Position numbers and translations under genes: made by a program
Notes under the pieces: model-generated
Told to the model about the DNA's origin: nothing
Seen by the model: only the letters and a program-made list of their open reading frames with translations
Databases searched by the model: none
Shown here: positions 57,074-59,271 of the stretch, piece after piece
How positions within the stretch are numbered: position 1 is the first letter of the stretch
How the letters are laid out: every line of letters begins with the position of its first letter
Origin: a virus
Strand: one strand, 5' to 3'
IMG/VR virus record: IMGVR_UViG_3300023491_000002
DNA: 64,000 nucleotides

Positions 57074-57090
57074 TCCTCATGAATCATTGA

Positions 57091-57146
57091 CGGGGGCATT
57101 CCCCCAAGCATTACAAGGGGGGTGCTGTCGTATAAGGAGGTCCCCG
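57091..57146. promoter_or_regulatory. GC-rich hairpin cluster at the edge of the divergent non-coding region: GGGGG-CATT-CCCCC (57092-57105), G6 run (57116-57121), GGAGGTCCCCG
   Basis: Extreme local GC content in an AT-rich genome, immediately upstream (minus strand) of the gene starting at 57073. Confidence 0.5.
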
Positions 57147-57152
57147 TAAATA

Positions 57153-57800
57153 GCCTCTCACAATCGATATAAAGTCAAGCAACAGAGTCACTAAAAGTCT
57201 TAGAATTAATAATTGTAATAACAATAGAAAATGTTTTAGAATTTGCAATAAAAGAATCATGAGAATAAGCCATACAATAGAGCTAATAGAAGTCTTAGAA
57301 TTATCGTCACTAAAATCAATAGAAACTCCATAAGAATCAAAATTAAAAATTGCATTACTAAAAGCCTTAAAATAACCAATAATAAAATCCAGAGAATATC
57401 CGCAATAAATTGTAATAGAATAGGTTCCTGCACACAAACTCTCATAATCGGTATAAAGTCGAACAACAGTGTCATTAAAGCCAATAGAAAATTGAATAGT
57501 AATAGTGTTAGAAAATGCTTTAGAATTAATAATAGAAGATTGGTAAAGACGAGCCTATGTAATAGAAATTGCAAAATGAATTAAATTAGCTGCCCTGCTT
57601 ATATCCAAAGTTCCTTAAGCAATTGCAATATCAAAAGAATTAGAATAAGCACTTAAATCGCTCTGTGTACAAATCCGAATATTAGAACTTGCAATGTGAA
57701 TTAAATAAGAAGCCTTACTTATATTCAAAGTAATTTGAGTAATACTAAAAGTATACTTAATATAATCGGCATTAGCTTTAAAATTAATTAGAGTAACATT
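57153..57800. repeat. Degenerate tandem (iteron-like) repeats with a period of about 283 bp, at least 2.5 copies, containing roughly 120-bp sub-repeats and many ATTGCAAT/TTTGCAAT motifs
   Basis: CTCTCACAATCGATATAAAGTCAAGCAACAGAGTCACTAAAAG at 57153 aligns with CTCTCATAATCGGTATAAAGTCGAACAACAGTGTCATTAAAG at 57436. ATTGCAAAATGAATTAAATTAGC at 57568 aligns with CTTGCAATGTGAATTAAATAAGA at 57688. Confidence 0.7.
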
Positions 57801-57968
57801 AAGACAATCAGCATAAGCATTATCAAAATTCAGTGTATAATTTGCCAAAAATGTAAGCCGAAATGTGGTAACGTTGATTCTATTACAAATAATATTACAA
57901 GTAATATCAGAGTTACTCTAAGTAGTAATAGTATTAATACTACCGGTATTTATAATAACTTTGATGAG

Positions 57969-58020
57969 CTTTGTAATCCCCAGTAGGGAAATAGGTGTGG
58001 AAGGGAGCAACATTTTGCTA
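57969..58020 (+). repeat. Interspersed GC-rich mini-element, copy G (in the large non-coding region)
   Basis: CTTTGTAATCCCCAGTAGGGAAATAGGTGTGGAAGGGAGCAACATTTTGCTA. Confidence 0.85.
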
Positions 58021-58149
58021 TTACTCATGGTTATTCTAATATTATTAAAGATACTTCTACCACTGCAAAACTTATGAATCTTACTCATGCTTATTCAAAA
58101 TACATTGAAGATGCTTATATTAACTCTGATAATACGGGTGATGATACGG

Positions 58150-58196
58150 ATGTTCCGCGCGTCACCAGTCCTTCTTCCCTACTGGGGTCTGCTGAT
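58150..58196 (-). repeat. Interspersed GC-rich mini-element, copy H (in the large non-coding region, converging with copy G)
   Basis: Reverse complement reads CAGCAGACCCCAGTAGGGAAGAAGGACTGGTGACGCGCGGAACATCC. Confidence 0.8.
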
Positions 58197-58451
58197 CGTT
58201 ACAAAGCCCCTAGAGTTGGTAGTTGCAAAGCTATTCAAGATAGTATTGTTACTATAAGTATTACAGATGCTTTTCGTAGCTTTGTTACATTTTGCATTGA
58301 GCGGGGTGGAATTCCTATATATACTCTAAGTTTACTTAATGTTACTCTAAGTATTACTAAAGATACTTAAAGGAACTTAGAAGGGCATATACTTACTAAA
58401 GGTAATACTATTATATTTAAAGTTATTTTAAGTAGCTTCGGGGTGCTTTGT

Positions 58452-58563
58452 AAAGGAGAGAAGAGGGAGGAAAAGAGAGGGAGAGAAAAGGGGAGAAAAG
58501 AGGGGGACTATAGGGGGTAATAAGAGGGGATATGAGTAGGTGAGTATTGGTGGGTGATAAGAG
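58452..58563 (+). repeat. Homopurine/homopyrimidine tract (56 nt of pure A/G at 58452-58507, purine-rich to 58563) with four G4-G5 runs (58490-58529) giving G-quadruplex/H-DNA potential
   Basis: AAAGGAGAGAAGAGGGAGGAAAAGAGAGGGAGAGAAAAGGGGAGAAAAGAGGGGGA has no pyrimidine on the plus strand. G-runs GGGG, GGGGG, GGGGG, GGGG are separated by 8, 6 and 8 nt. Confidence 0.9.
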
Positions 58564-58651
58564 GTTTATTTGAATATAATTAAAATACATATTACGGACG
58601 GACGAATTTGAAGTAGTAATATTGTCATTGATATTACCTTTGGTAATCTTT

Positions 58652-58712
58652 ATATATATCCTTATATATATCGCAAAGCTCTGCATAGCGCATACGTGCG
58701 TGCGTATATATA
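58652..58712. repeat. (TA)n blocks plus a 24-nt perfectly alternating pyrimidine-purine tract (58689-58712, CGCATACGTGCGTGCGTATATATA), Z-DNA-prone; TGCGTGCGT recurs at 58786
   Basis: Read directly from the sequence. Confidence 0.8.
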
Positions 58713-59271
58713 GACAAAGGTATGAATGTGGTAGTACTGCGAATACTTTGCATATTGATTCGAAGCATTTAGAAGAACAAGGCACTGCGTGCGTGGCTGT
58801 AAATCTGGGTGAAGACGCTAGTACTATTGAGATTTCTATTGAATACTGCCTTTGAAACAGAAAAATATAAGGTTTAGAAAAAGATATTCAAGTAATCCCT
58901 TGTAATATCTAATTTATTCATATCTTTGTGAGTGACCTTTACTCATAATGAAGTCGGGAGTACTGACTACTGCTGTAACTGAAGACATCGCTGCTATTGT
59001 TGGTACTCCCACTATTATTAATGGTAATTCTGTTACTCTCATTTTATACTTTGTTTCACATTGAGGACGTGTTGGATAAAGATTTTCCGTTTCTGTTATT
59101 TGCCCTTTTGAAGACCGTCCTCCTTTTAAACCTACTACTATGTACACTGTTACAGTTAGTGCTACGTTAATGTTGTATAATATTACCTTTTATACTGACG
59201 CAGGTCTTTGTAGAGGTTATGAGATTGTGCCTATTAACATTGATTATCTTATAAAGTAAATTATTTAAACT

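Follow-up and report, generated by a model that had tools for sequence, protein, structure and literature searches.

A probable divergent control region with selected purine and alternating tracts, and possibly a replication origin, in a crAss-like gut phage

The interval 57074-59271 of the 64-kb stretch of DNA analysed here (the window) is a 2.2-kb gap between a leftward replication module and a rightward module in the genome, about 94.9 kb (~95 kb) in size, of a crAss-like phage from a gut lineage. Judged by sequence comparison, the interval has two parts, namely a repeat array (57146-57950) and a non-coding core of 1.3 kb (57950-59271) that is kept by selection. The reading that we favour, with a confidence a little short of even, is that the interval controls divergent transcription and probably holds an origin of replication as well. 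The exact mode of genome replication in the Crassvirales was described as unknown in a 2023 review (PMC10136315), and defined, testable candidates in an abundant gut phage lineage are presented below, namely two short tracts with substitutions that reveal selection for non-B-DNA potential and the element X, which occupies fixed intergenic positions.

Genome setting and layout of the interval

The leftward block encodes a Dda-like helicase, a DNA polymerase, a ligase and a RecT-like protein, and the rightward block begins with small genes and an exonuclease, followed by the terminase, whose gene lies about 7 kb downstream of the interval, and the virion genes. As an earlier note on this DNA had stated, genes diverge on both sides, with the leftward gene starting at 57073 and the rightward gene at 59272. 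Neither Pfam nor PHROG matched any of the flanking proteins (184, 158 and 171 aa) to a replication initiator family, the sole Pfam match of the 171-aa protein being a sub-threshold one to DUF592, and the 158- and 171-aa proteins had no tblastn match in 50,697 phage records, searches that a very remote homologue of an initiator could escape. Scans of the pseudo-proteins of the interval and of the neighbouring genes against Pfam and PHROG returned no family of known function, and two neighbours had weak, sub-threshold Pfam matches only. Near-identical DNA is absent from the 50,697 GenBank phage records. The whole interval is 1906-2464 nt long in close relatives, and its features are listed in Table 1.

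A comparable junction is found in cr127_1 (MT774393; Crevaviridae, Kahucivirus), where about 1.8 kb without annotation separates the same two gene blocks and likewise carries 12-nt repeats; the exonucleases of the rightward block and of cr127_1 share 47% identity, and the cr127_1 block runs on into the terminase and portal genes. Unlike the interval, however, the cr127_1 junction has clean tandem arrays of a 12-mer in 3-5 copies, and contains no homopurine or alternating tract and no X.

Table 1. Features of the interval, with positions counted along the window
Feature	Position	Strand	Remarks
Conserved GC-rich leader	57074..57146	-	Immediately precedes the first leftward gene (ATG at 57073)
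Hypervariable repeat array	57146..57950	-	T at every third base; 12/60/120-nt periodicity
Left X copy	57955..58024	+	Core CCCCAGTAGGGAA ... TGG ... GGAGC; arrow inward, complement on the leftward strand; nhmmer E = 3e-17
ORF_A, 98 codons	58074..58370	+	Runs through the right X copy; gene call in public data; coding doubtful
Right X copy	58139..58208	-	Inverted relative to the left copy
Block ATATATACTCTAAGTTTACTTAATGTTACTCTAAGTATTACTAAAGATACTTA	58316..58378		Imperfect 21-nt repeats; Tandem Repeats Finder period 21, 2.2 copies; nearly invariant between clades
Homopurine/G-run tract	58452..58530	+	Purine run 58452-58507, then GGGGG/GGGGG/GGGG; purines on the + strand
AT-rich low-stability stretch	58611..58672		12-nt TA-rich repeats (ATCCTTATATAT, 2.2 copies); separates the two structure-prone tracts
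CGCAAAGCTCTGCATAGC followed by alternating run GCGCATACGTGCGTGCGTATATATA (58688-58712)	58671..58712		CGCAAAGCTCTGCATAGC conserved; run strictly alternating
Predicted promoter block	58808..58928	+	A-tract-rich upstream part; -33 CTTG 58899-58902; 18-nt spacer; -7 TATCTTTG 58921-58928
27-nt block GCTGTAACTGAAGACATCGCTGCTATT	58972..58998	+	In the predicted leader; no difference between the clades, third-codon positions included
39-codon ORF	59140..59259	+	ATG and stop conserved in both clades; ends 12 nt before the gene at 59272

Repeat array and coding potential

Next to the leftward gene, the GC-rich leader carries a hairpin sequence, GGGGG-CATT-CCCCC, at 57092-57105 and a G6...CCCC segment at 57117-57145, and it can be aligned to the sister clade until about 57145-57162, beyond which homology is lost. 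The GC hairpins that the earlier note had pointed out are present as sequences, but the region 57092-57145, taken as RNA, folds no better than its shuffled versions (z = -0.69). The array beyond the leader shows autocorrelation peaks at lags of 12, 24, 36, 60 and 120, and indels between the clades are of 3, 12 or 24 nt. Because a T stands at every third base, one frame is nearly stop-free, which is why some strains show an ORF here. In the window it reads as a pseudo-ORF, 'LANYTLNF...', that starts with TTG at 57848-57846 and is broken by a TAA (57617-57615) and a TAG (57557-57555). The description of the interval as uniformly non-coding is too simple, about 0.8 kb of it being a hypervariable repeat array with an open frame in some strains. 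The claim that there are no credible ORFs likewise needs qualification: the raw sequence does contain ORFs, including stop-to-stop frames of 91-154 codons, and public gene calls place 3-4 small genes (77, 98, 25 and 77 aa) in the interval, whereas the conclusion survives for most of the interval when selection is considered. Among 21 close genomes, polymorphisms are spread evenly over the codon positions in every candidate ORF and show a third-position excess in the flanking genes, and dN/dS between clades is 0.9-1.2 in the ORFs of the interval versus 0.2-0.5 in the flanks.

The rather improbable alternative is that much of the interval is real, fast-evolving coding sequence. Both ORF_A and the left-arm 'MANYTLNF' protein, which has repeats of 20 residues, would then be early proteins that diversify and that the phage can do without, and the window would carry nonsense alleles. 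The left-arm ORF is intact (118-280 aa) in many related assemblies, with CAA or CAG where the window has stops, and each of the two stops of the window is a single C-to-T change of a Gln codon; hundreds to thousands of assemblies have ORFs of these lengths and of 98 aa, the codon usage and 3-nt periodicity of the interval match those of real genes in strength, and the identity of the left arm to L119 is mosaic, as expected of recombining cassettes. Against this, the start codon of the left-arm ORF is TTG, the ORF is cut at many different lengths across assemblies, and most of 20 close contigs carry the same stop as the window. It is absent at the site in the sister clade, where every frame has 10-38 stops and the periodicity is kept, and NNT periodicity predicts open frames. 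Its pN/pS is 0.63 versus 0.08-0.28 in controls, its variable sites are distributed 20/29/14 over the codon positions, Pfam and PHROG searches gave no match, and the AlphaFold2 model has a pLDDT of only 37. Descent from a known gene was rejected, the database matches of the left arm being confined to the same phage lineage and free of domains.

The coding status of ORF_A is doubtful. Its frame is open in 20 of 20 close relatives and in thousands of assemblies; it is also intrinsically poor in potential stops, so that its persistence is expected by chance (P = 0.26 for no stop in 47 substitutions). Its pN/pS within the clade, 0.39, is the lowest of the frames tested and speaks for coding, and is 1.06 outside X; dN/dS between clades is 1.07-1.22, variable sites are evenly distributed across codon positions, and the AlphaFold2 model again gives no confident fold (pLDDT 52). 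Two shorter ORFs were also considered. A 38-codon ORF at 58948-59064, within which the 27-nt block of Table 1 falls, lacks its ATG in the sister clade and has a pN/pS of 1.22, and the 39-codon ORF in Table 1 has, over few sites, a dN/dS of 0.90 between clades and 0.36 within, with 7/5/8 variable sites per codon position. From these comparisons and models, we infer that the array 57146-57950 is probably not a functional protein gene, but an A/T-rich array with periods of 12 and 60 nt that recombines rapidly. Repeat arrays of this periodic kind in AT-rich phages can thus mimic genes: frames stay open, codon usage is like that of genes, and metagenomes offer 'homologous proteins' by the hundred, none of which is evidence of a protein. 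This is a warning for annotation. TAG or TGA is reassigned in some crAss-like phages. Stop-codon recoding was rejected here, as the stops of the interval are a mixture of TAA, TAG and TGA, the standard code leaves the long genes intact, and no tRNA was found in the 64-kb window.

Promoter, structure-prone tracts and element X in the core

The suggestion in the earlier note that the interval is a regulatory or promoter hub is supported, at the level of sequence, by a predicted promoter that faces the rightward block and is conserved in both clades together with its A-tract-rich upstream part, and by the two gene modules facing outward. The sister clade carries CTTG-N18-TACATTTG at the corresponding position, and the predicted transcription start lies near 58935. 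We take CTTG-N18-TATCTTTG to be of the Bacteroidetes primary-sigma type (consensus -33 TTTG and -7 TAnnTTTG, spacing ~17-21 nt), its -33 element reading CTTG for the TTTG of the consensus. TAnnTTTG alone is enriched about 2-fold in the interval (7 versus 3.7 expected). Promoter scans returned no convincing candidate ahead of the homopurine tract, nor did they give one for the leftward block, and a scan for E. coli-type promoters gave no excess (13 versus 13.5 expected), with 0 intrinsic terminators. No known RNA family in Rfam reached its gathering score in the window, and nothing meaningful was seen in the interval at E values up to 5.

The homopurine run of 56 nt is confirmed, and no other purine or pyrimidine run in the 64 kb reaches 20 nt, the longest run in 200 shuffles having a mean of 16 and a maximum of 24, and the G4 potential ascribed to it is borne out by the sole G4-type motif of the window, at 58465-58506. 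Positions 58460-58519 contain no variable site among the 21 close genomes, and one related sequence lacks 37 nt of the tract. All the differences between the clades in this tract (11/11) are A<->G transitions, compared with 42% elsewhere (P = 8e-5), as are 13 of the 14 variant events across 28 sequences, compared with 53% elsewhere. The (TA)n blocks were also found, as TA-rich 12-nt repeats at 58646-58672, and the 60-mers at 57879 and 58611 rank among the least stable of the window (lowest 0.33% and 0.44%, respectively), as expected of AT-rich DNA unwinding elements. The alternating purine-pyrimidine run is 25 nt long, and no other in the window reaches 14 nt. Here too, transitions account for 10 of 10 differences between the clades (versus 42% elsewhere, P = 2e-4) and for all 13 variant events across the 28 sequences (versus 53% elsewhere), and the sole indel, of 2 nt, preserves the alternation. 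Since the changes are nearly all transitions, the homopurine character and the alternation are themselves under selection, which points to a structural role of the DNA or RNA. Neither tract is present at the equivalent junctions of cr127_1, crAss002, crAss001 and Rudgehvirus, and the tracts are therefore not a general solution among crAss-like phages.

The two 'mini-elements' of the earlier note are indeed there, and belong to a dispersed, lineage-specific family, X (45-55 nt), with 11 copies in the window, whose core CCCCAGTAGGGAA has 8 matches in the window versus 0.29 expected. The left copy is strongly conserved in the sister clade, and its flanks are ~68% identical. Although the left and right copies share 13 bp of perfect complementarity, a long-range stem between them was rejected, as the sister clade shows two mismatches without compensation; a fold within a single X was also rejected, with only 3 invariant pairs. 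A MITE- or REP-like mobile element was discarded on the grounds that the pairs 57955/58139 and 26236/26476 are opposite in polarity and that the two clades share the positions of the copies. A promoter built on Bacteroidetes -33/-7 boxes was discarded too, as neither orientation gives a consistent match, and so was the template repeat of a diversity-generating retroelement, as the interval resembles the rest of the window at X only. For the idea that X is a solitary CRISPR repeat or RNA anti-CRISPR, host arrays were sought with a strict 36-nt pattern that would miss diverged repeats; it hit 1 contig in 185,579 genomes, a phage-like sequence of 94 kb that had been binned with a MAG.

Other repeats of the interval fall into families that are 60-80% identical. 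What the earlier note had called iteron-like repeats of about 283 bp is a real repeat, but one that consists of only two copies of 118 nt, spaced 284 nt apart and 72% identical, and not of iterons; the direct repeats of 40 bp correspond to copies of ~39 nt at 58021 and 58081 that are 77% identical. A k-mer enrichment search of the interval for iterons found no short motif above 5-9 copies at 5-9-fold, and no 8-mer more than 5 times, a weak motif being TTCTATT (9 copies, 6-fold enriched).

Origin, transcription control or genome terminus

In the mechanism that we propose, transcription would leave the core in both directions, and negative supercoiling would build up between the diverging polymerases. 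The homopurine tract could then form a triplex or an R-loop and the alternating tract Z-DNA and, with the AT-rich stretch between them, supercoiling would open the duplex, which would most likely serve the bidirectional initiation of replication, a purine-rich RNA on the homopurine tract being a possible primer. At a minimum, the tracts would couple the two sets of promoters.

Several known origins offer partial parallels. The origins of ColE1, oriF and oriG of phage T4, the mitochondrial CSBII and the herpesvirus oriLyt are primed by transcription through an R-loop. In each of them, the non-template strand carries a G-rich purine tract beside an easily melted stretch in a promoter-rich region, such purine tracts forming stable RNA-DNA hybrids that are able to prime DNA synthesis. 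The G-rich purine tract of the interval also adjoins an easily melted stretch, a likeness of possible working and not of family membership; unlike in these origins, no promoter reading into the tract was found, and a hybrid or primer here is hypothetical. Iteron-type origins, such as the lambda ori, the P1 oriR and those of theta-replicating plasmids, contain near-identical sites of 17-22 bp. The interval is similarly repeat-rich, AT-rich and intergenic; however, its repeats are diverged and hypervariable, with no set of at least three near-identical direct repeats of ~17-22 bp, and no initiator gene was found adjacent to it. None of the 19 matches to the DnaA box (TTATCCACA, up to 1 mismatch) in the window falls in 57074-59271, the window total being as expected by chance. 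In Carjivirus communis, the prototypical crAssphage, origins have been predicted at the strand switch, with a coverage gradient in support and repL adjoining (PMC10983915). Like that predicted origin, the interval lies at the start of the forward gene block and at a switch in GC skew; unlike there, the searches of the flanking genes detected neither RepL nor another initiator. The interval does sit on the minimum of the GC skew, but this minimum coincides with the switch in gene orientation and is therefore not independent evidence. The two 60-mers of low stability and the selection on the structure-prone tracts also speak for an origin.

It is possible, though on balance somewhat unlikely, that the interval serves transcription control only, with divergent promoters, leaders and perhaps long non-coding RNAs like those of phi14:2, the origin lying elsewhere and the tracts acting in promoter coupling or as parts of RNAs, e.g. 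a purine-rich leader. In phi14:2, the g004-g005 and g005-g006 intergenic regions give rise to abundant RNAs of unknown function from the earliest time point (10.1101/2020.03.07.982082). Compared by description, both are long non-coding stretches beside small genes without assigned function in a crAss-like phage, whereas the interval lies at a divergent junction and has structure-prone tracts, which are not reported for phi14:2. The conserved host-type promoter and the invariant leader block also agree with a purely transcriptional role, as does the fact that the origin hallmarks of the interval are limited to AT-richness and skew. Moreover, in three X copies of the leftward block, the GGGG of the complement of X precedes a start codon by 29, 29 and 45 nt, and both copies in the interval face outward in the same sense. 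Yet the selected alternation and homopurine character are more easily explained by DNA than by RNA sequence, X and the leader have no conserved RNA fold and no Rfam match, the orientation bias of X (8 of the 11 window copies run antiparallel to local transcription) is not significant, and the pair of X copies that sits at a convergent junction would fire into each other.

A more far-reaching idea, which we regard as quite doubtful, is that the tracts and the two outward-facing X copies together make up a phage origin/promoter module of a new kind, in which X would be the recognition site of a phage factor, e.g. the virion RNA polymerase, and a purine-rich RNA driven from X would prime replication. 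To our knowledge, the early promoters of the crAss-like virion RNA polymerase are still unknown. In phi14:2, the early transcripts of this enzyme are reported to lack a common upstream motif (10.1101/2020.03.07.982082).

The earlier note had also listed a genome terminus among the candidates. That the interval holds a physical end of the genome, with direct terminal repeats or a pac site, seems very unlikely. Terminal repeats are found in crAss001 and pac-type packaging in crAss002 (PMC8042965, PMC10136315), the proximity of the terminase gene would suit such a site, and six related contigs end inside the 2.2 kb, compared with ~0.6 ends per kb in the flanks. These ends, however, are scattered over ~1.2 kb (at about 57240, 57600, 57745, 57822, 58100 and 58460) and not stacked, as is expected where assembly breaks in a variable repeat; furthermore, twenty contigs are colinear across the region, and one contig of 95.9 kb self-closes elsewhere.

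Setting of the divergent junction

The window derives from a crAss-like phage and carries two giant plus-strand ORFs of 2877 and 4416 aa. Its minus-strand block (26570-57073) encodes a Dda-like helicase, a DNA polymerase, a ligase, a thymidylate-synthase-like protein and a RecT-like protein, and its rightward block includes a PD-(D/E)XK exonuclease (60170-61225) with 47% identity to the counterpart in the uncultured phage cr127_1 (Crevaviridae), where the exonuclease-containing block runs on into terminase and portal. From this gene content, the interval between the blocks (57074-59271) is therefore a divergent junction of a replication module and a structural/virion module. 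The 158-aa protein of a neighbouring gene is found in identical form in public contigs of 94.9 kb, and no DNA near-identical to the window was found among 50,697 GenBank phage records. In L024, a sister-clade locus, the counterpart of the first leftward gene (56519-57073, 184 aa in the window) is broken at 7307-7859 into two ORFs, one of 55 aa and one of 133 aa; a frameshift, faulty assembly or a genuine difference could account for this. Beyond the window, the rightward block of the related locus L036 encodes a 205-aa BACON-domain protein (13931-14548) and, just upstream of a portal-sized gene, a 1136-aa gene (16120-19530) which we take by position to be the terminase large subunit; its matches to Hom_end_hint, Hom_end and LAGLIDADG suggest a putative intein.

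The interval is a lineage-specific variant of the phage control or origin region, itself a known kind of element, and its value lies in its sharply defined, testable parts. Our tentative reading is a divergent control region probably including a replication origin. Origins have been predicted at the strand switch of Carjivirus communis (PMC10983915); phi14:2 produces long early intergenic RNAs, its early promoter motif being unknown (10.1101/2020.03.07.982082); and crAss001 and crAss002 differ in packaging, with the mode of replication unknown (PMC8042965, PMC10136315). Neither iterons nor DnaA boxes were found in the interval, nor any recognisable initiator gene, which speaks against an origin; a purely transcriptional region is a possible but rather doubtful alternative. 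The earlier note, partly confirmed in its observations and partly supported in its interpretation, had proposed an origin, an early-promoter hub or a genome terminus; a control region is supported by a promoter candidate that the sister clade shares. The one observation pointing to a terminus is that contig ends are over-represented in the interval, but these ends are scattered over 1.2 kb and are better explained by variable repeats, and we regard a terminus as highly improbable.

Gene-like sequence in the interval

Although the earlier note saw no credible ORFs here, the interval has the appearance of genes. Log-odds of codon usage resemble those of genes on both the minus strand (57175-57850) and the plus strand (57925-58300), the 3-nt periodicity matches genuine genes in strength, stop-to-stop frames reach up to 91-154 codons, and public annotations contain four small genes in the interval. 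A search with the translated left arm, a repeat array reading as a pseudo-ORF, returned 253 protein clusters of 118-280 aa, all from ~95-kb contigs of the same lineage. The left-arm ORF of L119, a 96-kb genome, has 202 aa and the same TTG start, with CAA at the window's TAA (57617-57615), and the 280-aa relative P0001 has Gln at the position of the window's TAG (57557-57555). These features speak for a mostly coding region, with the left arm as a dispensable, diversifying gene, a reading that we consider unlikely.

Protein-level constraint nevertheless fails in every test. In 21 close genomes, polymorphism is distributed evenly over the codon positions of the left arm (20/29/14 variable sites) and of ORF_A, a 98-codon frame (17/16/14), against 18/11/28 and 4/1/16 in flanking genes. 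The left arm has a pN/pS of 0.63 and ORF_A one of 0.39 (1.06 outside its copy of the dispersed element X), with controls at 0.28 and 0.08; between the two clades, dN/dS reaches 1.07-1.22 in ORF_A and 0.90 in a 39-codon ORF, with controls at 0.50 and 0.22. The sister clade lacks the left-arm ORF, showing 10-38 stops in every frame, and retains the periodicity; AlphaFold2 models have a pLDDT of 37 (left-arm protein) and 52 (ORF_A). The openness of ORF_A among close relatives is compatible with chance (P = 0.26), because no more than 2.8% of the substitutions possible in this frame create a stop. In a few assemblies its terminal TAA (58368-58370) is CAA, and the frame then crosses the homopurine tract (...ERRGRKREGEKRGEKRG...) to give 148-154 aa (e.g. 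protein P0127).

The favoured explanation of the gene-like stretches is that they are periodic repeat arrays. In the left arm, every third position is T at 52-77%, and frames stay open because a third-position-T frame can hardly hold stops. Autocorrelation in the interval peaks at lags 12, 24, 36, 60 and 120, indels between clades measure 3, 12 and 24 nt, and interval length ranges between 1906 and 2464 nt in genomes that share 95-98% identity; at the same junction, cr127_1 has clean 12-nt tandem arrays. The supposed 283-bp iterons reduce to a single pair of 118-nt copies, 72% identical, and k-mer enrichment revealed no true iteron; the segment described as GC hairpins exists but folds no better than shuffled sequence. 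A second stretch of ~820 nt without a called gene (53865-54687), between two minus-strand genes, contains two copies of a 12-nt tandem, GCGAATATTTCT, and the repeated motifs GATTCTAATTCAAA and TTTTAATTTGCAAT; its longest frame has 79 codons.

Conserved tracts and promoter candidate of the core

The core was aligned with the sister clade, whose flanking protein is 66% identical and whose DNA is 68% identical over 57950-59017, and discrete blocks are conserved (table).

Features of the interval and of the convergent junction, and copies of element X
Feature	Coordinates	Strand	Remark
Left arm	57146-57950		
Core	57950-59271		
ORF_A	58074-58370	+	
X copy	7752-7819	-	
X copy	11782-11852	+	
X copy	26236-26304	-	
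X copy	26476-26540	+	
X copy	35830-35900	+	
X copy	43443-43508	-	
X copy	43841-43909	+	
X copy	49351-49412	+	
X copy	52940-53004	-	
X copy	57955-58024	+	conserved block
X copy	58139-58208	-	conserved block
Block	58316-58378		conserved block
Homopurine tract	58452-58507		conserved block, with its G-runs
G3+ four-run motif	58465-58506		
Alternating tract	58688-58712		conserved block, with CGCAAAGCTCTGCATAGC
Block	58808-58928		conserved block
Promoter candidate	58899-58928		CTTG-N18-TATCTTTG
Invariant 27-mer	58972-58998		conserved block
Hairpin	26165-26210		GAGAGAGG...CCTCTCTC, convergent junction
Hairpin	26533-26562		AAGCATAG...CTATGCTT, convergent junction

The homopurine run with G4 potential pointed out earlier was recovered at 56 nt; no other purine or pyrimidine run in the 64 kb reaches 20 nt (longest per shuffle over 200 shuffles: mean 16 nt, maximum 24), and the window's only G3+ four-run motif lies within it. 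The alternating pyrimidine-purine tract is likewise present, measures 25 nt and is the sole alternating run of at least 14 nt. The most informative result on the core is how the two tracts change. Between clades, all differences are transitions in both the homopurine (11/11, P = 8e-5) and the alternating tract (10/10, P = 2e-4), compared with 42% of the other 439 differences; among 28 distinct sequences, transitions make up 13/14 and 13/13 of the variant events, respectively (background 53%), and the alternating tract shows a single indel, of 2 nt. Conservation thus acts on the restriction of one strand to purines and on strict alternation rather than on the letters, a signature that would be expected for triplex, R-loop or Z-DNA potential. 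No site varies in 58460-58519 among the 21 close genomes; in one related sequence, 37 nt of the homopurine tract are missing. Two 60-mers are among the least stable of the window, 58611-58670 between the tracts (lowest 0.44%) and 57879-57938 at the centre of symmetry (lowest 0.33%). Both tracts are absent at the equivalent junctions of cr127_1, crAss002, crAss001 and Rudgehvirus.

The promoter candidate points into the rightward block, is preceded by a conserved A-tract-rich block, and fits the Bacteroidetes -33/-7 pattern; the sister clade retains it as CTTG-N18-TACATTTG. Neither the leftward block nor the sequence upstream of the homopurine tract yielded a conserved promoter of this type, and a scan for E. 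coli-type promoters gave no excess.

Element X and the convergent junction

The two mini-element copies noted in the interval are real and belong to an 11-copy family, X, with the core CCCCAGTAGGGAA followed ~9 nt on by TGG and ~6 nt further by GCGGAAC. X has no fold of its own; the interval copies share 13 bp of mutual complementarity, which is lost in the sister clade. It is restricted to the window's lineage among 2.9 million viral contigs, and a strict 36-nt pattern matched one phage-like contig in 185,579 genomes. That contig, L117 (CAJUAL010000008.1, 94,313 bp, the size of a phage genome), was deposited within an 'uncultured Vampirovibrio sp.' MAG and probably represents a crAss-like phage that was binned together with a bacterium. 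Since its positions are identical in both clades, X is not currently mobile. It mostly occupies short gaps between co-directional genes; of the nine copies outside the interval, two lie in frame within the 2877-aa ORF and one within a 197-aa ORF. A further copy lies beyond the window at the 3' end of the positional terminase gene of L036-type loci (~19437-19494). In three leftward-block copies the complement's GGGG precedes a start codon by 29, 29 and 45 nt. Of the 11 copies, 8 run antiparallel to local transcription, a bias that does not reach significance. Candidate roles for X are a promoter specific to the phage, a punctuation signal and a site for protein binding.

Both gene blocks finish at the convergent junction (26139-26569) in a hairpin and then an X copy, and this junction could be a replication or transcription terminus. 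Several GATAAC/GTTATC motifs lie between its two X copies.
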